In this document: positions 7,786-63,349 of the stretch, piece by piece
Position numbering within the stretch: the first letter of the stretch is position 1
Layout of the letters: the number at the start of each line of letters is the position of its first letter
Assembly (NCBI GenBank): GCA_041662205.1
Contig: JBAZSZ010000001.1
Coordinates: 226,494-290,493, forward strand
DNA length: 64,000 bases
From: Minisyncoccota bacterium
GTDB taxonomy: Bacteria; Patescibacteriota; Minisyncoccia; Phycocordibacterales; UBA9973
Direction of reading: 5' to 3'
Translations under genes and position numbers: made by a program
The notes under the pieces: model-generated
Databases searched by the model: none
What the model saw: the letters and a program-made list of their open reading frames with translations, nothing else
Told to the model about the DNA's origin: nothing

Positions 7786-8304
7786 ATGAGCAGTAGATTC
7801 ATTTGTGAAAATAATAAATATAAAATTGGAGGTGAAAAAGAAGATACAATCTATCTACCAGTATCTTTTAGTAATCTACCAGAAGAAATAAAAGTTCAAG
7901 AACAAACTTTGTATTTATTTAACTCTTTTCATGTCAGTTTAATTTATATTGGAAAAATAATTGAGAAATATAATATCACAATTCCTGATTTTTTAAATAA
8001 AATAGAAAATGATTTTTGTGAATTTATAAAGACAAATAATGTAGAAGTTGTTCGTTATAACAATGAATTCAAGTTTGTTGCAAGAAATGATAAAAAAACT
8101 GTAGTTGTTATGTGTGAAGTCTCAAACTTAAACAAATTCTTCGATTTAATAAACCAAAAGTATGAGCTACCTCTCAAGTATATGCCAACCCATGTTACTT
8201 TGTATGGTAATTTAAAAAACAAACCTGGCATTTGGTTAATGAATGAAGACGATATTAAAAACTTTACTATCCCTATTGAAAACCCGATAGGTCGTTTACT
8301 TTAG
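7786..8304 (+). CDS. hypothetical protein
   Basis: 172-aa ORF, AT-rich, no recognisable motifs. Confidence 0.45.
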   Translation: MSSRFICENNKYKIGGEKEDTIYLPVSFSNLPEEIKVQEQTLYLFNSFHVSLIYIGKIIEKYNITIPDFLNKIENDFCEFIKTNNVEVVRYNNEFKFVARNDKKTVVVMCEVSNLNKFFDLINQKYELPLKYMPTHVTLYGNLKNKPGIWLMNEDDIKNFTIPIENPIGRLL

Positions 8305-20397: not shown

Positions 20398-23319
20398 ATG
20401 ATTTCCCGTATATATGTGGCACCTAAAGGAAAAACTGATTTCATTAATTCTTACTTAATTTCACATAAGTTGGGAGTCGAAAAAATCCTAAAAATAGCTC
20501 AAGCTCTGACGAATCCAATCCTCGAAGAATTTTCTATAAATAAATTTCCCGATGTCGGACATCTGGCATCAAAATTTACTTATGCTATTGAAATAGGTTT
20601 TAAACCCGGGGTCACAGACAATGTAGGTCATACAGTGGAGGAAACTATTCTGGATTTATTGCATCTGAAAGATAAAAATGATTTAGCAGTCTACACTTCT
20701 AAAATTTATTTGGTTTCAAATTCTAAATTGGAAGATGTAGAAAAAATTGCTCTTACACTACACAATCCTTTAATTGAACGTTCTTATATCGCTAGTTTTG
20801 CTGAAATCAAAAAAGAAGGACTACCTTTAAAAGTTCCAAAAGTTATTCTCAAGAAAAATACCCCTGTCATTAATGTTTCTCTAAAAGTGCCTGATGAGGA
20901 ACTTGTAAAAATCGGTAAAGAAGGGATTTTGGGCAAGACAAACAGTAAGATAAAAGAAAGAAGGGGCCCGCTCGCTTTAGACTTGGCTTCAATGAAAGTA
21001 ATCCAAGAACATTTTAAAAAATTAAAAAGAGATCCGACTGATATTGAACTCGAATCTCTAGCGCAAACATGGTCTGAGCATTGCAAGCACACTATTTTTG
21101 CCAATCCTATCGAAGACATCAAGGATGGTTTGTATAAAACATATATAAAAGGCGCGACAAATTTAATACGCAAACAAAAAGGGAAGAAAGATTTTTGTGT
21201 CTCAGTGTTTAGTGATAATTCCGGTGGGATTATTTTTGATAAAGATTATTTAATAACGCATAAAGTTGAAACACACAATAGCCCTTCGGCTCTTGATCCA
21301 TTTGGAGGAGCTATCACGGGAATTGTGGGGGTGAATCGAGATACTATAGGCTTTGGCCTAGGCGCAAAACCAGTAGCCAATGCTTATGGTTTTTGTTTTG
21401 GTAATCCAGAAGACAAAAGGGCTCTTTTCCGCGATAAAAATTTAAGTCAAAAAATGCTTTCACCTAAACGCATAATGGAAGGAGTAGTAAAAGGAATAAA
21501 CGTAGGCGGAAATTGTTCTGGGATACCGACGCTTTCTGGTTTTGTTCATTATGATGAAAGGTATAGAGGCAAACCCTTGGTTTTTGCCGGAACAGTAGGA
21601 TTAATTCCAAGAAATTTACCCGCCTCTGGAGGGAATAATCGACCATCACACGAAAAACAGGCGCAAGTAGGAGATCACATTGTGGTAGTCGGAGGTAGAG
21701 TAGGGCTCGATGGCATCCATGGAGCAACTTTTTCTTCTGTAGTGATGGATTCGAGTTCTCCGGCTACTGCGGTGCAAATCGGTGACCCAATTACTCAAAA
21801 AAAATTAAGCGATGCAATAATCAAAGAAGCGCGAGATCTGAATTTATATAACAGTATCACAGACAATGGCGCAGGGGGGATTTCTTGTTCGGTTGCGGAA
21901 ATGGCAAAAGAATGCGGAGGAGCAAAAGTTTCGTTAGAAAAAGTTCCGTTAAAATACCCCGATCTTCGTCCGTGGGAAATTTGGATTTCAGAATCACAAG
22001 AACGTATGACTTTGTCAGTACCCAAGAAAAAATGGGAAGTATTTAAAAAATTAATGAATAGTCGGGGAGTAGAAGCGACTGTGATAGGTGAATTCACAAG
22101 TTCTGGAAAATGTATTGTGGATTATAGAAGTAAAAAGATAATGGATATCCCTATGGATTTTTTGCACGATGGCTTGCCGGAACAAAATTTAGTTACAGAA
22201 CCATTTATTTACAAAAATAATGAAATTAAACCTGAAACAAAAAAATCTTTTACTGAGATTTTGGAAAATTTACTTAGCAGTAAAAACATTAGTGGATTTT
22301 CCTTTATTTCCGAGCAGTATGATCACGAAGTGCAAGGATCTTCTGTTTTAAAACCTCTTTCCGGACGGGGTCGTATCAATACCGAAGCGCAAGTTTTAAA
22401 GCCAGTTTTAAATTCAAATAAAGGAGCTGTTTTATCTTCTAGCACTTATCCTTCTTATGGAGATATCAGCACTTATCACATGGCTGCTTGTGCGATAGAT
22501 ACTGCTATCAGAAATACTCTTTGCGCTGGTGGAACACTTTCGCATTTAGCTATTCTAGATAATTTCTGCTGGTGTTCATCTAATGATCCAAAACGCTTAG
22601 CTCAACTCATAGACTCAGTAAAGGCTTGCTACGACTACGCTGTAGGATACGGAACACCATTTATTTCTGGTAAAGATAGTATGTTTAATGACTTCAAAGG
22701 TTATGATGAAAAGGGTAATCCTGTGGCCGTCTCTATTCCACCGACACTTCTCATCTCAGCGATTAGCGTCATGTCTGATTTAAATAAAACTATTTCTCCT
22801 GAATTTAAAAATACAGGTGATGTGATTTATCTATTGGGAGAAACGAATGATGAACTAGGCGGAGGAGAGTATTTAAAAATGTTTGGCGTAGTAGGGGAAG
22901 ATGTACCCAAAGTAGATTTAAAGAAAAATATAAAAATATATCGTGCGTTAGAAAAAGTAATTCAAAAAGGATTAATTGCTTCAGCCATATCTCTTAATTC
23001 TGGCGGACTTGCGATTGCTCTCTCCAAAGCCTGTGTCGGAGGAATGGTAGGATGCAAAGTCTCCCTTGATCATATAGGAAATTCCTTTGGGATAGATGTA
23101 AAATTATTTTCTGAAAGCCAGGGAAGAGTTTTAATTTCTGTGTCTCCTCGAAATATCTCAGAATTTGAAAAAATAATAAAAAATATTCCTTATACTAAGT
23201 TAGGCAAAATAACTAAAGATGAGAAATTGATAATCACAAATGGTAAAAGTAAAGTGATAGAAACGAATGTTAAAAAATTACACAATGCTTACCATAAATT
23301 TTCTAATTCACAAAAATGA
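20398..23319 (+). CDS. purL: phosphoribosylformylglycinamidine synthase subunit PurL with ~190-aa N-terminal extension
   Basis: Canonical small-PurL core starts near residue ~190 (LAQTWSEHCKHTIF). The repeated AIRS-like domains are present. Confidence 0.9.
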   Translation: MISRIYVAPKGKTDFINSYLISHKLGVEKILKIAQALTNPILEEFSINKFPDVGHLASKFTYAIEIGFKPGVTDNVGHTVEETILDLLHLKDKNDLAVYTSKIYLVSNSKLEDVEKIALTLHNPLIERSYIASFAEIKKEGLPLKVPKVILKKNTPVINVSLKVPDEELVKIGKEGILGKTNSKIKERRGPLALDLASMKVIQEHFKKLKRDPTDIELESLAQTWSEHCKHTIFANPIEDIKDGLYKTYIKGATNLIRKQKGKKDFCVSVFSDNSGGIIFDKDYLITHKVETHNSPSALDPFGGAITGIVGVNRDTIGFGLGAKPVANAYGFCFGNPEDKRALFRDKNLSQKMLSPKRIMEGVVKGINVGGNCSGIPTLSGFVHYDERYRGKPLVFAGTVGLIPRNLPASGGNNRPSHEKQAQVGDHIVVVGGRVGLDGIHGATFSSVVMDSSSPATAVQIGDPITQKKLSDAIIKEARDLNLYNSITDNGAGGISCSVAEMAKECGGAKVSLEKVPLKYPDLRPWEIWISESQERMTLSVPKKKWEVFKKLMNSRGVEATVIGEFTSSGKCIVDYRSKKIMDIPMDFLHDGLPEQNLVTEPFIYKNNEIKPETKKSFTEILENLLSSKNISGFSFISEQYDHEVQGSSVLKPLSGRGRINTEAQVLKPVLNSNKGAVLSSSTYPSYGDISTYHMAACAIDTAIRNTLCAGGTLSHLAILDNFCWCSSNDPKRLAQLIDSVKACYDYAVGYGTPFISGKDSMFNDFKGYDEKGNPVAVSIPPTLLISAISVMSDLNKTISPEFKNTGDVIYLLGETNDELGGGEYLKMFGVVGEDVPKVDLKKNIKIYRALEKVIQKGLIASAISLNSGGLAIALSKACVGGMVGCKVSLDHIGNSFGIDVKLFSESQGRVLISVSPRNISEFEKIIKNIPYTKLGKITKDEKLIITNGKSKVIETNVKKLHNAYHKFSNSQK

Positions 23320-25073
23320 AAACTGAAACTAAGCAATGCCAAAACTGTAAGGAAAACTTCGTGATAGAGCAGGAAGATTTTAATTTTTACGAAAAAATAA
23401 AAGTCCCAACTCCGACTTTTTGTCCGCTATGTCGCGCGCAAAGAAGATTTGTTTTTAGAAATGAACGTAAACTTTTTAAAATCAAAGATGCTTTTACGGG
23501 TAAAAATATTTTTTCACTTTTTCCAGCAGAAAGTGGCAGAAAAGTCATTACTCAAGAAGAATGGTATGGAGACAGCTGGGATGCTATGGAATATGGGAGA
23601 GATTATGATTTTTCTAAAACATTCTTTGAACAATTTTTTGAACTTGAAAAAAAAGTGCCTATCTATAACCTAAATGTGCAGAGAATGATCAACAGCCCAT
23701 ATTCAGGAAATGCAACAGCCTTAAAGAATTGCTATCTTTGTTTTCATTCTAATTATTCTGAGGACTGTATGTATGGCAGTGCTAATGATTTTTGTAGAGA
23801 CTGTGTGGATACTTCTCATATTCAACATTCAGAACGTTGCTATGAATCTTTTTGGCTTAATAAATGTTATCAATGCTATTTCACCATAAAATCTGAAGAC
23901 TCTCGTAATTTGTATTTTTGCAGAGATTGCGTAGGTTGTAATGATTGTTTTGGTTGCGCAAATCTACGTAAGTCTTCCTATTGCATTTTTAATAAACAAT
24001 ACACGAAAGAAGAATACCAAAAAGAATTAGAAAAGATGAAACTGGAAACTATTTCAGGCACAAAAGAAGCGAGAGAGAAAGTTAGAGTATTTTGGAATAC
24101 TCAACCTATTAAAAATCACCAAGGACTTAAAAATTTAAATTCAACAGGATCTTTTGTGACAAATTGTAAAAATGTTAATGATGGTTATTTAATTCGAGAA
24201 GGTGAAAATATGCGCTACTGTCAATCCATGCAAGTACCTGCAAATAAAGATTGTTACGATACTTTTGCTTGGGGAGAAAATACAGAGCTTTCTTATGAAA
24301 CTGCAATATGTGGTGAAAATTCTTACAATATGAAATTTAGTTTTAATTGCTGGCCCACCTGTAGAGATAGTGAATATTGCATGGATCTTTTTAGTTGTTC
24401 AGATTGTTTTGGTTGTGTGGGTTTGAAAAAAAAGCAATATTGCATTTTTAATAAACAATTTACAAAAGAAGAATATCAAAAAATTGTGGGAAAAATTAAA
24501 GAACAAATGGATGAAGTTCCTTATGTAGATAAACAAGGTGTTATTTATAAATACGGAGAATTTTTTCCAGCTGAATTTTCTCAACTTGGGTATAATAATA
24601 CTGTAGCTCCTCAACATTTTCCACTGACAAAAGTAGAGGCAGAAAAGAAAGGATATTTATGGGTAGAAGCACCGCAAAGTGAGTATAAAATGACCATTAA
24701 GTCTTCCGAACTCCCAACCTCCATTCCAGAAGAAGATGAGATTCTAAAAGAAATCATAGAATGCGAGAACTGTAAAAAAGCTTATCGCATAATGGAAAAT
24801 GAATTGATTTTCTTGCGCAAGGAAAAACTACCTCTACCTAATTTGTGTCATGATTGCAGATATGATAGAAGAATAAAGGATAGGCTGACTATCAAATTAT
24901 ACGAAAGGTCATGTATGTGCGCAGGTGCTAAAGATGAAACTGGGATTTATAAAAATACAGTAAAACATCTTCATGGAGGTGAGCCATGTAGAGAGAAATT
25001 TAAGACTGGATATGCTCCAGAAAATAAAGAGGTAGTATATTGTGAAAAATGTTATCAGCAGGAAGTTTATTAA
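23316..25073 (+). CDS. Cys-rich zinc-ribbon-repeat protein, paralog family member A (unknown function), embedded in the pur operon
   Basis: N-terminus CQNCKENF..FYEKIKVPTPTFCPLCRAQRR. Internal CxxC-rich repeats (CRDCVGCNDCFGC..YCIFNKQYTKEEYQK occurs twice). C-terminus VYCEKCYQQEVY is identical in the paralogs at 54810 and 56041. Confidence 0.6.
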   Translation: MKTETKQCQNCKENFVIEQEDFNFYEKIKVPTPTFCPLCRAQRRFVFRNERKLFKIKDAFTGKNIFSLFPAESGRKVITQEEWYGDSWDAMEYGRDYDFSKTFFEQFFELEKKVPIYNLNVQRMINSPYSGNATALKNCYLCFHSNYSEDCMYGSANDFCRDCVDTSHIQHSERCYESFWLNKCYQCYFTIKSEDSRNLYFCRDCVGCNDCFGCANLRKSSYCIFNKQYTKEEYQKELEKMKLETISGTKEAREKVRVFWNTQPIKNHQGLKNLNSTGSFVTNCKNVNDGYLIREGENMRYCQSMQVPANKDCYDTFAWGENTELSYETAICGENSYNMKFSFNCWPTCRDSEYCMDLFSCSDCFGCVGLKKKQYCIFNKQFTKEEYQKIVGKIKEQMDEVPYVDKQGVIYKYGEFFPAEFSQLGYNNTVAPQHFPLTKVEAEKKGYLWVEAPQSEYKMTIKSSELPTSIPEEDEILKEIIECENCKKAYRIMENELIFLRKEKLPLPNLCHDCRYDRRIKDRLTIKLYERSCMCAGAKDETGIYKNTVKHLHGGEPCREKFKTGYAPENKEVVYCEKCYQQEVY

Positions 25074-29136: not shown

Positions 29137-30515
29137 TTATCCCAATTGAAAAATTGTTCTCGGTCTGGGCCGGTACCGACGGAGATGATCTTTATATTAA
29201 GGTCGGAGAGTTTATTTTTTATATATTTTAAATAGGAGACGAGTTCTTTGGAAACTTTCTTTTTATTGTTTACGCCGTAATTTTTTTCTCCCCAGCCGTG
29301 GATATCTTCTGTCACCACATTCGTTACTTTACTTAAATAAAGTGGAAACTCTTTTAAAATTTTATTTTTATTTTTCTCTTTTACTTTGTATCCCGTGACC
29401 ACTTTTATTTTATCACTCAAACAAATATCAGCTTTGTTTATAAAAATTCTATTTGCACCCGAAAGCTCTATGGCATGGCGCAAAGCAAATAAATCAAGCC
29501 AACCGCACATCCGCGGACGGCCAGTAGTCGCTCCGAATTCTTGCCCCGCATTCTGAAAAAGCTTTTCCAATGCTTCATCTTTTATTCTAGCAGGGAAGTT
29601 TCCACCGCCTACTTTAGTAGTATAAGCCTTGATCACTCCATAGATATTTCGCAAATAAGTATGAGGCACGCCCAAACCCAAGCAAACGTTGGCTGGTAGG
29701 GTATTACTGCTTGTAACATTAGGATAATCACCAAAATCAACATCCAACATCACCGCTTGTGCGCCTTCGGCTAAAATATTTTTTCCGTCTTTCAGTCTTT
29801 TTTGAATTAAAGATGATACGTCACAAATTTTAAGTTTCTTTATTTCTTTTACTACTTTCAACCATTTTTTCTTTGATTTTTTTATTTTTTTTAGATCAAT
29901 TTCAAAACCATATTTTTCTCGGTACATATTCAAAAGATTCATATGAAATTCAGACAAAATCTTTTCTTTCTTTTCAAAATCCGGTAATAATATATCACCC
30001 ATCAAAAATGCTCTCCTGTTTCGCACATCAGCATAAGCTGGACCAATACCTCTAGATGTCGTACCTATCTTTGTTCCTAGTTTATCGTTTAATTTACTTC
30101 GGCGATGTTCTTCGGCTTGATCTAAAAAAGGATGTAAGTATGAAACTAATTTTGCTCGATTAGAAATAAAAAGACGAGGAACAACATTGAATCCTAAATT
30201 TTTTAATTGAGCAATTTCTGAAATCAAAGACACAGCATCTACCACAACACCATTGCCAATAAATAATTCAATTTTTTTGTGAAGGCAACCAGACGGAACA
30301 ATGTGCCCAATAAAAGTAGTTTTGCCTATTTTGAGAGTGTGTCCAGCATTAGCACCCCCTTGAAAACGAGCTACTCCAGAATAGATACCAGAAGATAAAA
30401 GTTGGTCTATATTTTTACCTTTTCCTTCGTCTCCCCATTGAAGGCCGACAACCACGTCGATAAATCCTTTATTGCCCAACACTGTAGTTAGGAGATTCTT
30501 TAGTAATGACGACAT
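29133..30515 (-). CDS. purA: adenylosuccinate synthetase
   Basis: [12 protein letters not shown]-loop and GIGPAY. Confidence 0.9.
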
Positions 30516-54809: not shown

Positions 54810-55988
54810 CTAATAAACCTCCTGCTGATAACATTTCTCACAATAAACTATCTCAGGCCTATTTGGCGCATAGCTGGTTTCGAATTCATTCTGGCACCCA
54901 ATATTCATGCATTTTCTATGCCAAAGTTTAAGTGAATTCTCTAATTTTAAACGATCACTATTTCTGCAGAAAAAACATTTACGTGGTATTGGAATAGAAT
55001 ATTTTTTGTAAAAGGTAAATTCATTTTGGATAATTTTATAATTTCTACCACATTCTACACAAGTAAGTACTTCATTTAAAATATTTTCCGAAATATCTAA
55101 AATAGAATCCGGTATATGTTCTGACTTTAATGTCTCTTTATTAATAGTTTTTTGAATTTTGTCCCACCATTTATAGCCCCCTTTTTTAGCTTCTTCTTTT
55201 GATAGTGGAAAATATTCCATCGCCATAGTTTCATTATAACCAAAATTAGACATTGAAGCTGGAAAAAATTCTCCATATTCCCCAGTTTTCTTCATATGCT
55301 CAATCAATTTATCTCGCAATTTAAAATATTCTTCCTTAGAATATTCTTTGTTCAAAATACAATATTGGCCATGCTTTATAGCACAACAACCAAAAAGATG
55401 TTTTGAAGAATGACAATATGAAGTAGCACAACGAATGCACTCATACAAGAACTCATTTTTTGATCGAAGATTCATGCAATCCACAATGTCTTTACCCGCT
55501 AAACTAAAAAAACAATACATTGCATTTTCAGCATGCCAGCCAGAAAAACACATATAACAGTTTTTTGAAAACCACCAATCGTGTGTATATTCGCAGTTTA
55601 AACTAGCAATACCATCGTCGTTTACTACTGACATATGAGGAACTTTTCTTATAAGTTCTCTGAATTGAGAAAAAAATGTTTTTGAAAAATCATAATCAGA
55701 ACCATAGCTTTTTGCATCCCATTTATCACTCCACCAACATTTATTGCAGTAAATAGTAAGACCCGAATCTGGAGCATAAATAGACACTACTCCTTTTCCA
55801 CATAAATCACATTTTCTGTTAAAAAGAGACATTTTATTTCTCCACGCCCAGCGTCTTTGTCTACGACAATCTGTACAAAAAGTTGGAAGAGGAACTTTTA
55901 TTTTTTCATAAAATCCAAAATCGTCCGGCTCTATTACGAAATCTTTTTCACAATTCTGACATATTTTGTTTTCACTTTTATCTTTCAT
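54810..55988 (-). CDS. Cys-rich zinc-ribbon-repeat protein, paralog family member B
   Basis: CQNCEKDFVIEPDDFGFYEKIKVPLPTFCTDCRRQRR N-terminus; C-terminus ...PEIVYCEKCYQQEVY is identical to members A and C. Confidence 0.6.
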   Translation of the reverse strand: MKDKSENKICQNCEKDFVIEPDDFGFYEKIKVPLPTFCTDCRRQRRWAWRNKMSLFNRKCDLCGKGVVSIYAPDSGLTIYCNKCWWSDKWDAKSYGSDYDFSKTFFSQFRELIRKVPHMSVVNDDGIASLNCEYTHDWWFSKNCYMCFSGWHAENAMYCFFSLAGKDIVDCMNLRSKNEFLYECIRCATSYCHSSKHLFGCCAIKHGQYCILNKEYSKEEYFKLRDKLIEHMKKTGEYGEFFPASMSNFGYNETMAMEYFPLSKEEAKKGGYKWWDKIQKTINKETLKSEHIPDSILDISENILNEVLTCVECGRNYKIIQNEFTFYKKYSIPIPRKCFFCRNSDRLKLENSLKLWHRKCMNIGCQNEFETSYAPNRPEIVYCEKCYQQEVY

Positions 55989-55997
55989 ATTTTTAAT

Positions 55998-56017
55998 CTA
56001 CTTTAGTTAAGTAAAGT
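55998..56017. promoter_or_regulatory. palindromic motif TACTTTA-N6-TAAAGTA between the two tandem Cys-rich genes
   Basis: The same 7-N6-7 palindrome recurs at 61405-61424 and 62389-62407. Confidence 0.5.
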
Positions 56018-56040
56018 AATTAAAATACACTAGCCACAGG

Positions 56041-57744
56041 CTAATAAACCTCTTGCTGGTAACATTTCTCACAATAAACTATCTCTGGCCTATCTGGTGC
56101 ATAACTTGTCTCAAATTCTACTTCACATTTTTTATCTACGTGAAAATGCCCAGCTTTGTTGCACATACACTGTCTGCGCCAAAGCTTGTTTGGTCCTCTA
56201 TTTTTATAACGTTTAATGTGACGGCATTCAGGGCAATTGCGCGGTATTGGTATTTCCATTCTTTTATAAAAAGCCAGCTCATCTTCTATAATTCGATAAT
56301 TTTTATTGCACTCTGTACACAAAAAGACTTCTTTGTTTACATCAAAATCTTTTAATAAATTCATTATAGAATCTGGGAAACTTTTCCAATCTATTGTTTC
56401 TTTGCCATACGTCCCCCGAGGAGTATCTTCCCATTTAAAACCTTGAGCTAGCGCTTCTTCTTTGGTGAGTGGGAGTTCGTCCATAACAGAAGATTCATTG
56501 TAACCGAATGGTGAAATATCCTTTGGAAAAAAGTCACCATAAATACCACCTTCTTTCATTTTTGAAATAATTTCTGCGCGCAATTTTTTATAATCTTCTT
56601 TGCTATATTGTTTATTTAAAATACAATAAGAACCCTTTATTAAAGAAACGCATCCAAAACAATTATTAGAATTTGGGCAATTTAAACAATATTCCATAAA
56701 TTGTGAGCCCCAGCAATATTGAGAACAAATAATATTTGACGCTTCGAGACCAGTATTAAGGGTATTATAAATTAATTCTGATGTGCGTCCTGCAGTGTTG
56801 CAATCCATGCAATCTTTCGCTCCACGCCAAACATGCATAGAATAAGCATTATCTTCCGCATCATAAGAATGGAAACATTGACGATTATTTTTTACATTTG
56901 TCATATAGTTTCCAGTAGAATTTACGGCATTGAAAATCTCAGCGAACTTTCTAGGTTTGTCTTTTATAAAATTTTGAAATTCTTTTTTAAAAGATTCCAC
57001 TCCGGAATGCGTATCTAATCTAAAAGATTTTAATTTCTTTTCATATTCCTCTTTTGTGTATGATTCATTAAAAATACAATTTTTTTGTCCACGCAGATTT
57101 ATACATCCTAAACAACTTGTACAATTTCGGCAATCAAGAAGAAAAGAACTATCAAGACAACTATGGCACCCTTTAGAAAATCGTAGATTATTGCAGTCAT
57201 AACAATCATCAACTTCATATGACAATTCTACTTTGTTTGTAAAAGAACAATCAACTAAATCTTTTGAAAGCTGGATCCAATAGCAATTAATACAATTCTC
57301 ATTATTTGAACTTTCTATGATCACATAGCAGTTTTTATTATCAGCTGTAAAATTTAAATAATGACAATTAACATTCCTTAAACCAGTTAAGGCTGGTTTT
57401 GGAGTTTTTTCCCAAAGCTTCCTAAATTGTTCAAAGAATGATTTTTTAGAGTCATAATCTTCCGCATATTTTTTAGCTTCTAAATCGTCGCCATACCAAC
57501 AATTAGAACACCAACTTGGATAAGTTTTGTTTGGGCTAAAAACTGAAATGGTATCTTTTTTACAATTATCACAAATGCGTTTATAAAAACATCTTTCATT
57601 TTTATAACAAAGTCGAAGTTGCATTCGACACTCTGGACAAATTTTGGGAGAAAGCACACCAATCTTTTCATAAAATCCAAAATCATCCGGCTCTATTAGG
57701 AAATCTTTTTCACAATTCTGACATTGCTTAGTTTGTGCTTCCAT
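56041..57744 (-). CDS. Cys-rich zinc-ribbon-repeat protein, paralog family member C
   Basis: TKQCQNCEKDFLIEPDDFGFYEKI N-terminus; two internal C..C.GC..L....YCI.N..Y.KE.Y modules; C-terminus PEIVYCEKCYQQEVY. Confidence 0.6.
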   Translation of the reverse strand: MEAQTKQCQNCEKDFLIEPDDFGFYEKIGVLSPKICPECRMQLRLCYKNERCFYKRICDNCKKDTISVFSPNKTYPSWCSNCWYGDDLEAKKYAEDYDSKKSFFEQFRKLWEKTPKPALTGLRNVNCHYLNFTADNKNCYVIIESSNNENCINCYWIQLSKDLVDCSFTNKVELSYEVDDCYDCNNLRFSKGCHSCLDSSFLLDCRNCTSCLGCINLRGQKNCIFNESYTKEEYEKKLKSFRLDTHSGVESFKKEFQNFIKDKPRKFAEIFNAVNSTGNYMTNVKNNRQCFHSYDAEDNAYSMHVWRGAKDCMDCNTAGRTSELIYNTLNTGLEASNIICSQYCWGSQFMEYCLNCPNSNNCFGCVSLIKGSYCILNKQYSKEDYKKLRAEIISKMKEGGIYGDFFPKDISPFGYNESSVMDELPLTKEEALAQGFKWEDTPRGTYGKETIDWKSFPDSIMNLLKDFDVNKEVFLCTECNKNYRIIEDELAFYKRMEIPIPRNCPECRHIKRYKNRGPNKLWRRQCMCNKAGHFHVDKKCEVEFETSYAPDRPEIVYCEKCYQQEVY

Positions 57745-58309
57745 TTTCTTCTTTTAAATCCCCCGCTTCGACGGATAAATCTTCTAAATTCTTTGATGCG
57801 ACATTTATAGAATTACTAACTTCCGCATAATCTGGTAATTCTTCTACAGATTTTACTCCCATAAAAGACAATAACTCAAAACTAGGTTTGTAAATATATT
57901 TTCTACTATCTTTCATATCTGTAGTTTTCTCTATGAGTCCACGAATAGATAATGCACGTAAAGTAAAACTGGAGTTTACTCCTCTGATATAGTCAATCTC
58001 TGCGCGAGAAACTCCATTTTTATAAAGAATAATAGAAAGGGTTTCTAGGCTTGCTTTTGAAAGATCTTTATTCAATTCTTCTTTTTGTAAGTCTTCGATG
58101 AGCTTACTGCATTCCGAAGCTGTGCCAAGCATAATTTCTTCATCATTTTCAATAAGTACTATTCCTCTATTTTCTAAACTTGTTTTTAAATTTATAATTG
58201 CTGATTGAATTTCTTCTCCTGAAACTTTCAAAATTTCAGAAAGTTTTTTTCGTGACATCGGCTCTCCTTTCCAAAACAATATTGCTTCTATTTTTTGTTC
58301 TAAATTCAT
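57728..58309 (-). CDS. scpB: segregation and condensation protein B
   Basis: Tandem winged-helix EAILF..GEP...L.EIL pattern; directly downstream of and overlapping scpA. Confidence 0.8.
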   Translation of the reverse strand: MNLEQKIEAILFWKGEPMSRKKLSEILKVSGEEIQSAIINLKTSLENRGIVLIENDEEIMLGTASECSKLIEDLQKEELNKDLSKASLETLSIILYKNGVSRAEIDYIRGVNSSFTLRALSIRGLIEKTTDMKDSRKYIYKPSFELLSFMGVKSVEELPDYAEVSNSINVASKNLEDLSVEAGDLKEENGSTN

Positions 58310-59022
58310 ATTTTTTCAATTATAATATCCTGAAAATTCTCATTTTGTGTCGCATCCATTATACCATTTCTAACAAGCTCTAACATGGCCAAAAAACCAA
58401 CTATCACAACAATTTTCTCTTCTTTAGATTCGGCTTTTCCTGCAAAATCTTTAAAATTCATTTTCAGAGAATTTTGAATCCTCTCCGTCAATTTATCTAT
58501 CATTTCTTCCAAACTGATTACTTTTCGTACTTCTACTTTTGGTAAAAATACTTTTTGAGGCATGGCGCCTATTGCGTTTCGAGCGAAAGTCATCATAGAA
58601 TCTCGAGTGATTTGAGCATCTGGCAAAAATACTAGCACATCACTCTTTCTTTCAAGTGGCGCGAAAATTATTTTCTGACCAAAATTATTTTTTACATGAA
58701 CGCCAAGTTTGGTAAAAAGTTCATAAAGTCGAAGTCTTTCTTCCAAATTCTTTATATCTCCTTCCTCCTCATTTGTCAGATCTAAATTCGGTAACAATGA
58801 TTTTGATTTGATTAAAAGCAAAGTAGATGCCACAGAAACAAAACTAGAAACTTCAGAATAATGCAGACCTCCTAATCTATTCATATAATTCAAATAATCC
58901 TCAGTCACCACAGAAAGAGAAACATCATTGATATGAAGCTTCCTTTTTTCAATCAAAGTCAAAAGCAGTCCAAACGGTCCCTCAAAACCAGCTGTTTTTA
59001 TTGTGTAATTTTCTGTTTCCAC
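58306..59022 (-). CDS. scpA: segregation and condensation protein A
   Basis: ScpA kleisin N-terminus (FEGPFGLLLTLIEKRKL). Confidence 0.8.
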   Translation of the reverse strand: METENYTIKTAGFEGPFGLLLTLIEKRKLHINDVSLSVVTEDYLNYMNRLGGLHYSEVSSFVSVASTLLLIKSKSLLPNLDLTNEEEGDIKNLEERLRLYELFTKLGVHVKNNFGQKIIFAPLERKSDVLVFLPDAQITRDSMMTFARNAIGAMPQKVFLPKVEVRKVISLEEMIDKLTERIQNSLKMNFKDFAGKAESKEEKIVVIVGFLAMLELVRNGIMDATQNENFQDIIIEKI

Positions 59023-59067
59023 CTTTATATTATATAACTATTTTAAAATTTTAACTAATTAAATAAT

Positions 59068-59901
59068 TTAAATCATTAAAAATATTAAACCAACAACAAT
59101 AAAAATAAATGAAATAATTTTAATTAATACATGTTTTTCATGAAAATATTTATTCCCTGAAATGATTGACCATAAAATAGAAAAGGCTCTTTTGCCACTT
59201 GTGATTATTGAAGCAGGAGCATAGACATACGCAACACCTACGATAGCACCACCGATACCATTTGAGAAAGATTGAATGAAAAAATTTTTCTTAAAAATAA
59301 ATCCAAAAGGATTTTCTTTAAATTTCCAAACAGACATTATAAATAAAAAAGATAATAAAAAAATATGAGTAATGATCTGCTGAGCTTCAACAGAATTATA
59401 ATAAGTAATGCAATATTTATAAATAGAAATAGTCGCTACTGCATTGATTGTGGAAAATACAACGTAACCAATCCCTTTTTTATTAATACCATGATTAATG
59501 AGTAAAATAATAAGACCTAAAACTATTATAAAAATCCCAAATAAACTTAAAATATTTATACTATACCCTAGGATTATATCCACCACGAGTAAAAGAGGTA
59601 TCGTGCCAATCATTAAAAACCCAAAGGTACTGCGGTCAGCCTCAACTATCGCATGAAGAGTAGAATAAATTTGAGCCATTTCCAAAATTATTAATAAAGA
59701 AAAAATTGGTATTGATGCAGGATTAAATATAAAATTATTTTTCAAAAGAGCAAAAACAATAAATATTATTAAACTCCAAAAAATATTCAAAAAACCAAAA
59801 GTATAAATATTTTCTTTTTTATTTAAAACTTCCCACTTTCCAAAAGATGAAGATATTTCACTAAAAAAAGTTCCTATCGCGGTTAAGATTAAGCCAATCA
59901 T
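59068..59901 (-). CDS. multi-TM membrane protein (DMT/EamA-like), hypothetical
   Basis: ~10 TM helices. Start placed at the internal Met to avoid a 50-nt overlap with pepA. Confidence 0.4.
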   Translation of the reverse strand: MIGLILTAIGTFFSEISSSFGKWEVLNKKENIYTFGFLNIFWSLIIFIVFALLKNNFIFNPASIPIFSLLIILEMAQIYSTLHAIVEADRSTFGFLMIGTIPLLLVVDIILGYSINILSLFGIFIIVLGLIILLINHGINKKGIGYVVFSTINAVATISIYKYCITYYNSVEAQQIITHIFLLSFLFIMSVWKFKENPFGFIFKKNFFIQSFSNGIGGAIVGVAYVYAPASIITSGKRAFSILWSIISGNKYFHEKHVLIKIISFIFIVVGLIFLMI

Positions 59902-59902
59902 G

Positions 59903-61315
59903 TTAGGAATTATATTCCTCAATAAATTTATACAAAAGCCGTACTGGAGTACCAAGAGCGCCGATAGCTAGATTTTCCCCTGACATAGGTGTCATCCTAG
60001 AAGCAATGTCTACATGTGCCCATTTGGGAGTTTTTTTATTTTCATCTTTATTTTTTATAAATTGATATAAGAAGATTGCGCCATAGATAGCTCCACCATA
60101 ACGAGAATCTTTATTATGAACATTTGTAAAGTCACCTATGGATCCTTTTATTTCATTTTCATATTCTTCCCACATGGGTAAACGCCAAACATAGTCTCCA
60201 GTTTTTTCTCCTGTTTCTTCAAGTTTTTTTGCCAATTCATCATCATTACTAAAAATTGCCGAAGCTCTCTCTCCGAGGGCTACCGCTGCAGCACCAGTCA
60301 AAGTTGCAACATCTATCACCACATCTGCATTATATTTTCCTGCATAAGTTAACGCATCTGCGAGAATCACCCTTCCCTCTGCGTCAGTATTCAAAACTTC
60401 AATTGTTTGCCCCGACATTGAACGAATCACATCTCCAGGACGATAACTTTTTCCCGAAGTCATATTTTCTACAGCAGGAATAAGTGCAATTACATTCTTT
60501 TTTAATTTCATTTTCGCAGCTAAAGCAATAGTATGTATTACTGCCGCGCCACCAGACATGTCCATATTCATTCCAAGAAGCGAAGACGATGGTTTCAAAT
60601 TTATACCACCCGCATCAAAAGTCACCCCTTTGCCTACGAGAACAATTGGCTTTTCATTTTTACTACTACCCCAGTATTCCATAATAATAAATTTTGATTC
60701 TTCATCTGAACCTCGCCCCACTGAAAGAATAGCTTGCATTTTTTGTTTCTCCATTTCTTTCTCACCCAGCACTGTGACTTTTACCGGTAAATTTTTTACT
60801 GTATACTTTGCTTTTTTTGCTAAAATTTGTGGAGTCATGTCTCCTCCGGGAATATTTGATAGTGTTCGAGTTTTGTTTACCTCTTCTGCTATTGTGTGAC
60901 CTTTCAAAATAGCTTTTTCTATTTCAGTATTTGTTCCAGAAATTATTATTTCTTTGATTAAGTTAAATCCTTCTTTGGGTGGAGTTTTATATTCATTAAA
61001 TTCATAATTAGCAAAATCCAGTTGAGAACCTATTACTTCTGCCAATTCTGCTTCAGAAAGTTTTATATTTTTAAATACAAAATCATTAAAATCAAAAGCT
61101 AACTTTTCTGCTTTTATGTTTTTTGCATTTACAATCATCTTACGCACAAGCAAAAAAAGCTTTCGCAAGTTCATTTTTTCTGCTTCATCGCATTTTAAAT
61201 AGAGTGACTTTATTCCACTCTCCTTCATAATTTCGTCTTTATTTTTTGAGCCAACAGAGACAAAAAGTGCCTCCTCTTTTACATCTTTTGCATTATCCTT
61301 AAAAGTTATTTTCAT
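59903..61315 (-). CDS. pepA: leucyl aminopeptidase (M17)
   Basis: NTDAEGRVILADAL signature; M17 catalytic domain. Confidence 0.85.
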   Translation of the reverse strand: MKITFKDNAKDVKEEALFVSVGSKNKDEIMKESGIKSLYLKCDEAEKMNLRKLFLLVRKMIVNAKNIKAEKLAFDFNDFVFKNIKLSEAELAEVIGSQLDFANYEFNEYKTPPKEGFNLIKEIIISGTNTEIEKAILKGHTIAEEVNKTRTLSNIPGGDMTPQILAKKAKYTVKNLPVKVTVLGEKEMEKQKMQAILSVGRGSDEESKFIIMEYWGSSKNEKPIVLVGKGVTFDAGGINLKPSSSLLGMNMDMSGGAAVIHTIALAAKMKLKKNVIALIPAVENMTSGKSYRPGDVIRSMSGQTIEVLNTDAEGRVILADALTYAGKYNADVVIDVATLTGAAAVALGERASAIFSNDDELAKKLEETGEKTGDYVWRLPMWEEYENEIKGSIGDFTNVHNKDSRYGGAIYGAIFLYQFIKNKDENKKTPKWAHVDIASRMTPMSGENLAIGALGTPVRLLYKFIEEYNS

Positions 61316-61404
61316 GCTTAGATTATATACCTTTTTAGAAAAAATTCAAAAAATAGCATTTTATTAAAAATATCAATAAAAAAGTTTTCCACACCTCTAT
61401 TAAC

Positions 61405-61443
61405 TACTTTACTTGACTAAAGTACTTTAGTTTGATAAAGTAG
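61405..61443. promoter_or_regulatory. nested palindromes (TACTTTA-N6-TAAAGTA plus perfect 14-bp CTAAAGTACTTTAG) overlapping a TTGACT -35-like hexamer upstream of the TrpR-like gene
   Basis: Read directly; ATG of the downstream gene at 61448. Confidence 0.55.
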
Positions 61444-61447
61444 CTGT

Positions 61448-61843
61448 ATGAGTAAAGGAATGAATAAAAATACATCAATCGAAACAGTTAAGCTAATTCA
61501 GGGAATTGGTTCAGGAATGAACTGGAACGATAAGAAAAATAAACAATTTATTGAAGCTATTTTGGTCTTAAAGAATGAAAATGAAGCTAAACTCTTTTTA
61601 CGTGATTTAATGACTGAGAGCGAAATAAAAGAATTTGCTAATCGTCTAGAAGCTGCTCGCCTGCTCTCAAGAGATGTGCAATATAATGCCATTATCGAAA
61701 GCACCGGTCTTTCTTCTGCAACCATCGCACGAATAGCAAAATGGCTGAAAGGGTCGCTTGGTGGATATCGTTTAATTCTATTTCGCCTATCAAACAACCA
61801 TCACAACTCTTCCAAACTTGGGAAAGGGTTACTTTTGAGCTGA
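61448..61843 (+). CDS. YerC/YecD (TrpR-like) family DNA-binding protein
   Basis: LFLRDLMTESEIKEFANRLEAARLL...ATIARIAKWLK is typical of TrpR-like YerC proteins. Confidence 0.6.
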   Translation: MSKGMNKNTSIETVKLIQGIGSGMNWNDKKNKQFIEAILVLKNENEAKLFLRDLMTESEIKEFANRLEAARLLSRDVQYNAIIESTGLSSATIARIAKWLKGSLGGYRLILFRLSNNHHNSSKLGKGLLLS

Positions 61844-61974
61844 TAATTATATTTTAAATTTTTTTTTGAAATTAACCCCTTCCTAAGTTTACTAGGAAGG
61901 GGTTTTGCGTTGTCCACTGAAACGCTATGGTTTCCCTCCATCAGGGATAAATTTGTTCTTTGAAAGGAGAAAAA

Positions 61975-62154
61975 ATGAAGAAATTAAATCCTCACACATG
62001 TATTTTGTCCCAGAGAGAAATTGAGAAATTGCTCGAACCTATTGAGGATCATGGTCATTGTTATAGTGCAATAGCTCAATCAATGATCAGAGCTGAAAAG
62101 GAGAGAAGAAAATTTAGCTGTAAGCAGTGTATAAAAGGAGAAAATTATGGATGA
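61975..62154 (+). CDS. small Cys/His-containing protein
   Basis: SD AAAGGAG 5 nt upstream of ATG 61975; 59 aa with C..H.C...C.QC. Confidence 0.35.
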   Translation: MKKLNPHTCILSQREIEKLLEPIEDHGHCYSAIAQSMIRAEKERRKFSCKQCIKGENYG

Positions 62155-62305
62155 TCGTATTTGGTGTCCCAATTGCAACAAGTGGAATTTTGTAAAAATT
62201 TTAAAAATCATAACCACGAAAGAAAATGACGGGACTTGGATTTTCAAAACAAAATGCAAATGCACTGCTTGTAAACACAAATGGACTGACATTGAAAAAT
62301 TTTAA
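62147..62305 (+). CDS. small zinc-ribbon protein (CPNC...CTAC)
   Basis: SD AAGGAG upstream of ATG 62147; 52 aa; two CxxC pairs; terminator follows. Confidence 0.35.
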   Translation: MDDRIWCPNCNKWNFVKILKIITTKENDGTWIFKTKCKCTACKHKWTDIEKF

Positions 62306-62330
62306 CATCGCGTTCATTAACGCAACAAAT

Positions 62331-62366
62331 GGGCTACTCGTAAACGAGTAGCCCATTACTATTTTT
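62331..62366 (+). terminator. rho-independent terminator (gggctactcg-taaa-cgagtagccc plus T-run)
   Basis: Perfect 10-bp stem with tetraloop followed by attactattttta. Confidence 0.75.
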
Positions 62367-62388
62367 ATCCAATTATTTATTTCTATCT

Positions 62389-62407
62389 ACTTTACTAAAC
62401 TAAAGTA
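62389..62407. promoter_or_regulatory. palindromic motif TACTTTA-N5/6-TAAAGTA
   Basis: Third copy of the recurring palindrome. Confidence 0.45.
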
Positions 62408-62425
62408 ACCAGTATTTACAAAAAA

Positions 62426-63349
62426 TTAAATTATGTTTTCCTGACTCTCACGCAACCTGGCAATTTGATAAATACTAAAGACGAGAATGATAGCGGCGAG
62501 CCATTGGGTAAATGAAAGCACCGTGTGATTGACGATAAAATCCAATAAAATAGCTACAAACGGAAAAGTTAATTCTAGGATCGTCGAAATGTGAACTGGG
62601 GTTTTTGCTAATCCTTTGTAGTAAATAAGCAAAGCAACCATGCCGGTAGAAACAGCGATCAGCGCCAGCAGACCAAATTGGGAAACATTTGGCAAAGCAA
62701 AACTTCCTTCATTAGTCCTTCCATACAAAAGCACTAATGGTAAAGCAACAACTATGGTAAAAAGAAATCGATAAAACGTACTGACTTCAGCGCGAACTTT
62801 TCCTAAAAGCATTTTAGAAAATGTCGTAGACGAACCCCAAGCAAAAGCAGCACCGAGTGCATAAAGTGCTGCTATTATTGTCCCCTCTCCAGTTTGAAAA
62901 TTCACAACGCCATTTGAAAAAGTAACAAAGTATGCAGAAACTAATGCAAGTAATGCCCATTTGATATACCTGTTATCAAATTTCTCTTTTAGAAAAATGG
63001 TAGCGGTAGTAATAGCAAATAATGGCTGAAGTTTTTGCAAAAGAAATACCACTGAGATGGTAATAAAGTGAACTTTCCCTAAAGCCGTCGTAAACCAAAG
63101 CGTACCTAAAAGTCCGCTCAAAATTGCTATCAAAATAACCAGCCACCATTCACGTTTACTAAGCCTAGTTTCTAAAACGTATTTAAGGACAAAGGGAGAT
63201 AAAATAATTAAACCAATCAAATGCTCAAAGAATATTATAGTGATCGGTGGTAGCAAATATAAATGCTGGCGAATGAGTCCGTCAAAAGCCCAAAGCAAAG
63301 CCGCAATGATAATAAAAACTGGACCTGTGTATCGAAAGTTTTTTAGCAT
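62426..63349 (-). CDS. EamA/DMT-family transporter
   Basis: 10 TM helices with duplicated EamA-like halves. Confidence 0.6.
   Translation of the reverse strand: MLKNFRYTGPVFIIIAALLWAFDGLIRQHLYLLPPITIIFFEHLIGLIILSPFVLKYVLETRLSKREWWLVILIAILSGLLGTLWFTTALGKVHFITISVVFLLQKLQPLFAITTATIFLKEKFDNRYIKWALLALVSAYFVTFSNGVVNFQTGEGTIIAALYALGAAFAWGSSTTFSKMLLGKVRAEVSTFYRFLFTIVVALPLVLLYGRTNEGSFALPNVSQFGLLALIAVSTGMVALLIYYKGLAKTPVHISTILELTFPFVAILLDFIVNHTVLSFTQWLAAIILVFSIYQIARLRESQENII

Follow-up and report, generated by a model that had tools for sequence, protein, structure and literature searches.

A predicted HisR-type operator system at yerC in a Minisyncoccota genome, with a putative histidine attenuator in the repressor's own tail

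Introduction

Histidine repression by a TrpR-family protein has been described in several bacterial phyla. The yerC gene of Bacillus subtilis has been renamed hisR, its product being a histidine repressor of that family (PMC9413887). Predicted HisR operators in Firmicutes, Actinobacteria and Synergistetes follow the consensus cacTTTAnnnnnnTAAAgtg (Ashniev et al. 2022, PMC9413887); one HisR bound its own site in vitro with histidine present, and a site lies upstream of hisR itself in about half of the hisR genes studied, autoregulation being common (PMC9413887). Leader peptides with His codons were noted in some Firmicutes, and Patescibacteria lay outside the scope of that study (PMC9413887). 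The subject here is a stretch of 64,000 nt from a Minisyncoccota bacterium (contig JBAZSZ010000001.1, positions 226,494 to 290,493; “the window”), in which the palindrome TACTTTA-N6-TAAAGTA recurs near yerC/hisR (61448-61843, plus strand), a gene for a 131-aa YerC/YecD TrpR-family regulator. The bacterium belongs to Candidatus Paceibacterota, within the Candidate Phyla Radiation (CPR). The palindrome is very probably the operator of that repressor, and the 3′ end of the gene appears to hold an attenuator.

The locus resembles the HisR regulon (PMC9413887) in the TIGR02531/PF01371 family of its regulator, in the CTTTA-N6-TAAAG core of a 20-bp palindrome, in an operator before hisR and, in relatives of the window, in his genes within the hisR operon. 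It differs in lineage (Patescibacteria/Paceibacterota), in having two overlapping operators that contain the entire promoter of a predicted leaderless mRNA, in the N- and C-terminal extensions of the protein, and in its predicted targets within the window, which are a Cys-rich protein and micro-proteins rather than his genes or known histidine transporters. Escherichia coli TrpR, with operators at trp, aroH and trpR, is alike in fold family, in its palindromic 20-bp operator, in tandem dimer binding and in autoregulation through an operator over the promoter; in contrast, its outer half-site bases are TGTACT where TACTTTA stands here, and the effector here is presumably histidine, not tryptophan. 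An ideal copy of the palindrome, TACTTTAGTTAACTAAAGTA, presumably has the central TAGTTAACTA in common with the trp operator.

A recurrent palindrome with the core of the HisR operator

Exact copies of TACTTTA-N6-TAAAGTA occur four times in the window, at 55999-56018, 61405-61424, 61423-61442 and 62388-62407, as against 0.00 in 100 dinucleotide-preserving shuffles. The half-site TACTTTA by itself is not enriched (24 in the window vs 19 expected), so the signal lies in the paired arrangement of half-sites. A sequence-only reading of this DNA had proposed a recurrent palindrome and had named genome-wide abundance at chance frequency as one outcome that would overturn its regulatory interpretation; exact matches and shuffles bear the recurrence out, and within the window the frequency is not that of chance. 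That reading found real palindrome sites, but it counted three where there are four and set two coordinates one base off. Its “nested 14-bp palindrome” CTAAAGTACTTTAG (61417-61430) turns out to be the junction of two overlapping 20-mers, and its “outer TAAAGTAG” is the right half of the second full copy, shifted 18 bp; neither is an element of its own. The gene contexts were correctly given: the YerC/TrpR-like gene, the divergent M17 peptidase gene pepA on the opposite strand, the tandem Cys-rich genes, the micro-proteins, and the EamA transporter gene, which ends beside the last site.

A fifth copy has the exact 12-base core ACTTTA-N6-TAAAGT (core span 29326-29343) and matches 19 of 20 bases over 29325-29344 (unstranded), within the purA coding sequence, where it codes for LYLSKV; a rough estimate from base composition puts the probability of an exact 12-base core arising by chance in the window at about 0.03. 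On a metagenome contig (L119, 11252-11287), a tandem operator pair lies 13 nt past the purA stop codon. Five copies in 64 kb do not make a repeat of the repetitive extragenic palindrome (REP) or miniature inverted-repeat transposable element (MITE) type, which comes in many copies of species-specific sequence: four of the five lie within 6.4 kb of yerC, and the sequence is identical over dozens of species.

The motif shares the core of the HisR consensus and has the length and symmetry of a 20-bp palindromic operator. The yerC product matches TIGR02531 with 64.8 bits (cut-off 42.2, E=7e-18) and PF01371 with 63.6 bits (cut-off 27, E=1.8e-17). Only residues 32-116 of the window protein can be aligned with the HisR-type structures PDB 3FRW, 3KOR and 3G1C; this span takes in the recognition helix SSATIARI, and the protein is longer at both the N- and the C-terminus than HisR proteins of about 100 aa. 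The match in motif core together with membership of the YerC/YecD family points to a known operator type in a new lineage; the palindrome is thus very probably an operator for the product of the gene at 61448-61843, the YerC/HisR repressor, as the sequence-only reading had suggested for its YerC-like protein. From the same comparisons we infer both the binding of YerC to these sites and histidine as its signal.

The yerC promoter: tandem operator sites and a predicted leaderless start

Upstream of yerC the operator is doubled. Operator A (61405-61424, unstranded) has a 6-bp spacer which, with one further base, supplies the -35 hexamer TTGACT (61413-61418), present as earlier reported 30 nt upstream of the yerC ATG. 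Operator B (61423-61442, unstranded), 18 bp from A, carries in its spacer the TG (61433-61434) of an extended -10; the -10 hexamer itself, TAAAGT (61436-61441), coincides with the right half of B. The whole, TTGACT-N17-TGnTAAAGT, was the sole match with an upstream TG flagged by a promoter scan of 55900-62500. The yerC ATG (61448) comes 6 nt after the -10 hexamer; transcription starting 7 nt past the -10 would begin at the A of that ATG, and the yerC mRNA is therefore predicted to be leaderless.

Conservation was followed in 80 loci around yerC homologues taken from species-representative genomes (81 sources with the window), sites being scored by mismatch counts and tandem pairs accepted with up to 3 mismatches over the 24 core bases. 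In 73 of the 81 sources two overlapping operators, offset by 18 bp, stand at a fixed place before yerC, and 5 more relatives have the pair as well. The shared arrangement is ACTTTA[C/G]TTGACTAAAGT-ACTTTA[C/G]TTTG[C/A]TAAAGT; in most loci 6-9 nt separate TAAAGT from the ATG. Exact core sites across all loci are intergenic in 154 of 166 cases, intergenic DNA making up 10.7% of bases. In other CPR lineages, the left half-site before shorter YerC genes is overlapped by the -10 of a canonical TTGACA-N17-TATACT promoter. A metagenome scan with the spacer class TACTTTASTWAASTAAAGTA, from which yerC promoter sites were excluded, returned 120 contigs; when gene starts no more than 200 nt downstream of a site were counted, 60 site-gene pairs involved YerC genes. 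Conservation of the motif upstream of orthologous genes, which the sequence-only reading had put forward as a check, is thus found both in the species representatives and in these 60 pairs.

This arrangement is most simply read as an operator at which a repressor blocks the core promoter. In other bacteria HisR/YerC is a dimeric helix-turn-helix protein that binds DNA when loaded with histidine; here two YerC dimers on the two overlapping operators would cover the -35, the extended -10 and the -10, shutting the promoter that fires at the ATG and so bringing about autorepression of the leaderless mRNA. With operators over the core promoter in 73 of 81 sources, and the double operator in the 5 further relatives, autoregulation of yerC, already proposed from the single sequence, is well supported by the comparative evidence.

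The same overlap invites the suggestion that the repeats are simply promoter parts (TAAAGT as -10, TTGAC as -35) of fortuitous symmetry, with no repressor involved, the right half-site being a plausible -10 and the operator A spacer a -35 hexamer. The inverted left half-sites, however, are invariant though a promoter needs none, the palindrome overlaps a separate canonical -10 in other lineages, and it also occurs where a promoter is implausible, namely at 62388 and at 16 convergent junctions. Coincidental symmetry of this kind is highly improbable. It is also very unlikely that the motif is bound by some other protein, such as a shorter TrpR-family paralogue, with YerC only a target. Relatives do encode a TrpR-family gene of 94-97 aa, and sequence alone cannot link a site to a protein, but the motif fits the HisR consensus and not the TrpR consensus, it tracks yerC over many lineages (the metagenome pairs included), and the region upstream of the paralogue has GTACTAGTCCCGTACTA, which is TrpR-like. 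Standing beside a TrpR-like GTACTAGT..., the second paralogue is not an obvious binder of the palindrome, and YerC itself is the preferred candidate.

This second TrpR-family protein adjoins a tRNA-synt_1b (TrpS/TyrS-type) gene in relatives; its gene lies at 7964-8257 in locus L081, 18833-19126 in L082, where the upstream region has GTACTAGTCCCGTACTAAATTTTTGATTACGGG, and 16716-17000 in L086. Four loci (L006 at 5926, L020, L023 and L028) have a very similar leader of about 75 nt between operator B and the yerC ATG, in place of the leaderless layout seen elsewhere.

Other features near the promoter can be set beside this arrangement. At a set distance upstream of operator A lies a DnaA-box-like 9-mer, TTTTCCACA (61385-61393, plus strand), and 60 of 75 related yerC promoters have the DnaA box TTATCCACA or a one-mismatch variant before operator A, mostly starting 20-21 nt before it and 10-11 nt before it in one sub-clade; at a few loci an inverted DnaA box abuts the operator. 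This box may reflect DnaA-dependent control of yerC or may be the site of another factor. A replication origin in the window was considered and set aside, only scattered single DnaA-like boxes and no cluster being present. The divergent pepA is probably not an operator target, having its own TTGAAT-N16-TATAAT promoter at 61349-61322, about 55 bp from the operators. The -10 of that promoter ends 6 nt before the pepA ATG (61315, minus strand), which makes pepA predicted leaderless too, and leaderless starts may be common in this organism.

A probable attenuator in the 3′ end of yerC

The his and trp leader attenuators of Proteobacteria combine a terminator, a mutually exclusive antiterminator, an upstream run of codons for the regulating amino acid, and a stop codon so placed that a terminating ribosome blocks the antiterminator. 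All four elements can be recognized at the end of yerC. Two His codons, CAT CAC (H118-H119; 61799-61804, plus strand), stand four codons before the first paired codon. The 5′ strand of the antiterminator (61817-61838, plus strand) is formed by the codons for L-G-K-G-L-L-L-S, shortly before the stop codon at 61841-61843; its 3′ strand (61866-61887, plus strand) overlaps the 5′ arm of a terminator hairpin, AACCCCTTCCTA / TAGGAAGGGGTT followed by UUUUGCGUU (61874-61906, plus strand; -19.6 kcal/mol, z = -4.3). The differences from the classical leaders are the lack of a dedicated short leader peptide, the putative sensor being residues 118-119 of a 131-aa repressor; the small number of His codons, only 2-4; the use of three RNA segments instead of four; and the absence of an Rfam family.

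The arrangement recurs widely. A hairpin AACCCCTTCCTAAG...CTTAGGAAGGGGTTTTGCGTT follows the yerC stop codon in about 72 loci and is followed by a leader and a Shine-Dalgarno region. These YerC proteins end in a tail, ..SN(H)HHNSSKL(R/G)KGLSLS*, that is missing in the HisR proteins of about 100 aa, and the stretch encoding L(R/G)KGLSLS is able to base-pair with the hairpin's 5′ arm plus the bases that precede this arm.

Covariation was assessed in an alignment of 67 loci, with 500 shuffles and slid-partner controls. The antiterminator comprises 19 pairs, with 92.8% of cells paired and 13 pairs changed on both sides; none of the 500 shuffles scored as high, and sliding the partner lowered pairing to 35-62%. 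The terminator comprises 12 pairs, 96.5% paired and 8 of them compensatory, again with 0/500 shuffles as high; taking both helices together, the slid controls were 35-78% paired. Where the tail residues differ (IQ, LE or FE in place of LR, and an entirely different tail in L030), the hairpin arm has changed to match. In the window the antiterminator folds at -22.9 and the terminator at -19.6 kcal/mol, and for the untranslated whole, which adopts the antiterminator form, the value is -33.8 kcal/mol.

Of the 67 loci, 66 have one or more His codons ahead of the helix, 59 have 2-4 of them and 56 have a run of at least two; in 56 a gap of 4-5 codons separates the last His codon from the first paired codon. 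By textbook ribosome footprints, a spacing of 4-5 codons would just free the helix from a stalled ribosome, while a ribosome at the stop codon would cover it. A ribosome that reaches the yerC stop codon would therefore cover the last eight codons and let the terminator at 61874-61906 form, leaving the downstream genes untranscribed; a ribosome stalled at the His codons by uncharged tRNA-His would leave the tail codons free for pairing with the terminator's 5′ arm, and transcription would read through. We consider it likely, if less firmly so than the operator assignment, that this is a histidine attenuator using the C-terminal tail of the repressor as its leader peptide, with the stalling step inferred.

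Three loci with a tailless YerC also lack the hairpin, and two of these have an operator directly before the next gene. For the attenuator and leader of the window and four relatives, Rfam gave no match, only sub-threshold hits to miRNA- and sRNA-like hairpins. Shorter YerC proteins of other CPR lineages (L099, L100, L103 and L156 among them) have tails with His runs, ..NHHTLSKAGKGLR and ..HHHHNHTNPSS.., and a tail attenuator may reach beyond the clade analysed here.

A candidate orphan operator and a variable slot

Downstream of yerC comes a conserved leader with GCGTT..AACGC, CCCT..AGGG and TTGTTCTTTGAAAGGAG (61907-61974, plus strand), found before any gene that follows yerC, whose fold was no better than that of shuffles. 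In the window it is followed by two overlapping micro-protein genes (59 aa, 61975-62154; 52 aa, 62147-62305; both plus strand), which make up a variable cargo; the 52-aa product is zinc-ribbon-like, and the 59-aa gene is missing in L001, the closest species representative. A strong hairpin terminator (62328-62357, plus strand) ends the unit. Between this terminator and the 3′ end of the EamA gene, and thus between two convergent 3′ ends, lies the operator TACTTTACTAAACTAAAGTA (62388-62407, unstranded).

This orphan site is itself conserved. The site and its left flank AATTATTTATTTCTA are kept in L084, L086 and L081, where the genes between yerC and the terminal site encode, respectively, an 82-aa protein, HisI and HisG, and where the right-hand neighbours differ too. 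At the equivalent position downstream of yerC, about 16 species representatives carry a site that is in some cases doubled as a tandem pair; of the 40 metagenome sites with no gene start close by, 16 are flanked by convergent genes. A role as a promoter operator, implied when this palindrome was first grouped with the others, does not hold, there being no promoter at the site. Our best guess is an auxiliary operator, which would raise the local concentration of repressor or loop to the promoter pair about 1 kb away. The lac O2/O3 and gal OI operators are similar as extra copies off the promoter, here about 1 kb downstream; the 62388 site differs in lying beyond the end of the transcription unit, and the comparison is one of analogy only. 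We know of no evidence for DNA looping by a TrpR-family protein. A more adventurous reading makes the site a boundary or exchange site of the variable slot.

Among close relatives the slot cargo differs (micro-proteins, HisG, HisI, the 82-aa protein, SLOG4 pairs), while the 3′ trailer (62306-62387) is conserved, with ATCGCGT..AACGCAA, the terminator, AATTATTTATTTCTA and the operator. Leader and trailer regions are likewise conserved in L081, L084, L086, L027 and L038, and the region after yerC looks like a slot that exchanges open reading frames between conserved untranslated regions.

Such variability raises the question whether the palindromes are recombination or mobile-element sites, with a tyrosine-recombinase-like core, bracketing a cassette of yerC and its cargo. 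The sites flank a slot whose genes differ in close relatives while leader, trailer and site are conserved; the 62388 site is part of a 57-bp indel relative to L001; and in L042, L068 and L138 the site precedes a XerC-like gene. Most loci, however, have no recombinase nearby, neither target-site duplications nor alternative arrangements came to light, the sequence is that of a known repressor operator, and the sites overlap core promoters at set distances, so that we give a recombination origin little credence. A directional bias of the spacer, tried as a sign of recombination, was weak and is explained by a preferred GTTAAC-like centre together with promoter needs. Nor are the palindromes at all likely to act as RNA hairpins, in the manner of weak terminators or stability elements, an idea we regard as extremely improbable: in L006, L039 and L042 the terminal copy does take the longer form AGCTACTTTA...TAAAGTAGCT, with a T-run after it, but a 7-bp A/U stem gives little stability, the copies at promoters precede the predicted start of transcription, and the 62388 copy comes after a strong terminator and has no T-run. 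Recognition as DNA by the YerC repressor is the reading carried forward here.

Cys-rich genes as predicted targets

The operator TACTTTAGTTAAGTAAAGTA (55999-56018, unstranded) ends 11 nt upstream of the ATG of a gene for a Cys-rich, zinc-ribbon-rich protein of 392 aa (54810-55988, minus strand), a shortened member of its family and the predicted target of this site, which overlaps TAGATT, a -10-like hexamer. The upstream paralogue of 567 aa (56041-57744, minus strand) has no operator of its own and is separated from this one by a terminator-like hairpin (56028-56046). Lying over the -10 region of the 54810-55988 gene, this third operator would bring about repression as at yerC.

In locus L082, whose YerC is 86% identical, the orthologous Cys-rich gene has the same site, the same spacer and the same 11-nt distance. 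The metagenome scan contributed 18 pairs in 13 contigs in which a site lies 7-34 nt from the ATG of a Cys-rich family gene, and these upstream sites are often doubled, 18 bp apart. The suggestion that YerC might control a small regulon including the Cys-rich genes gains from these 13 contigs and from L082, and such a regulon may well exist.

The family comprises more than 7000 homologous clusters and is specific to Paceibacteria/CPR, all names shown for it being “hypothetical”; its proteins had no curated Pfam or NCBIfam domain match, and an AlphaFold model with a mean pLDDT of 64 was too weak for a structure search. Members are typically about 570 aa long, with zinc-ribbon-like CxxC modules at both ends. 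Paralogues occur in arrays of 2-4 with an operator before one of them, the window genes being at 23316-25073, 54810-55988 and 56041-57744; arrays are also present in L091, L162, L190 and L202. The idea that the regulated copy is a histidine-sparing paralogue was dropped, since the 13 regulated copies have the same His and Cys content as the 25 unregulated ones.

The histidine link in relatives

Same-strand genes after yerC in relatives are often histidine genes and include hisG, hisI/hisIE, HisS/HisZ-like genes, hisD, a bifunctional hisB and a class I/II aminotransferase that is likely HisC, and a PRPP synthetase gene is often near yerC. HisG is encoded directly after yerC in a relative that is 91% identical, and hisI takes that place in one at 82%; in the window, the two micro-protein genes occupy the slot where these relatives have his genes.

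A solitary hisG or hisI, with no other his gene within 6-10 kb, stands right after yerC at several loci (L081, 2107-2994; L086, 8205-8540; L004, L014, L018 and L029). These genes may be what is left of a decaying pathway, or individual enzymes retained for other use. Another recurrent cargo after yerC consists of SLOG cluster-4 genes (PF18306) with an unannotated partner gene of 230-290 aa. In some genomes these genes are preceded by a separate operator, 6-19 nt from the ATG. The loci concerned are L022 (6373), L049 (6345), L139 (6183-6318) and L184 (504-639), and SLOG cluster-4 genes account for 4 pairs in the metagenome scan.

Weighing the evidence

Several observations weigh against the interpretation offered here. 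No histidine gene adjoins any operator site in the window, so that the choice of histidine as signal draws on relatives and on other phyla. No Cys-rich gene in the 80 species-representative loci is preceded by an operator. The orphan site at 62388 and the other terminal sites showed no promoter-like context and no following small open reading frame on either strand, and L001, the closest species representative, lacks the 62388 site through a 57-bp difference. As for the attenuator, the U-tract UUUUGCGUU of the terminator is short and fails the T-run rule of a simple scan, the window has two His codons only, fewer than classical his leaders, and the His run could serve the protein and not the ribosome.

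Implications and outlook

Taken alone, the operator finding extends an established type of operator to a new lineage. The new points are the operator pair that contains a promoter, the shift of targets to Cys-rich genes, the conserved orphan operator and, above all, the putative tail attenuator. Brought together, they suggest, with rather modest confidence, that in Paceibacteria the repressor gene serves as its own attenuator leader, the repressor reading histidine and the ribosome reading tRNA-His charging, to gate a swappable slot closed off by an operator, and that the circuit may have been redirected to the Cys-rich family as histidine synthesis was lost.

A search of the available paper library found nothing on gene regulation in the CPR, of which very little is known, most of these bacteria being uncultured. 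The present locus supplies a transcription factor, an operator, a promoter architecture and an attenuator with covariation support, all conserved over dozens of species, and that conservation makes the system testable in vitro or in a heterologous host. If true, the design would be unusual: the tail of a regulator would double as a leader, and one gene would sense both histidine and charged tRNA. The operators also mark a hot spot of gene exchange between conserved untranslated regions, and they provide a first functional handle on the family of Cys-rich “hypothetical” proteins, with its more than 7000 clusters.

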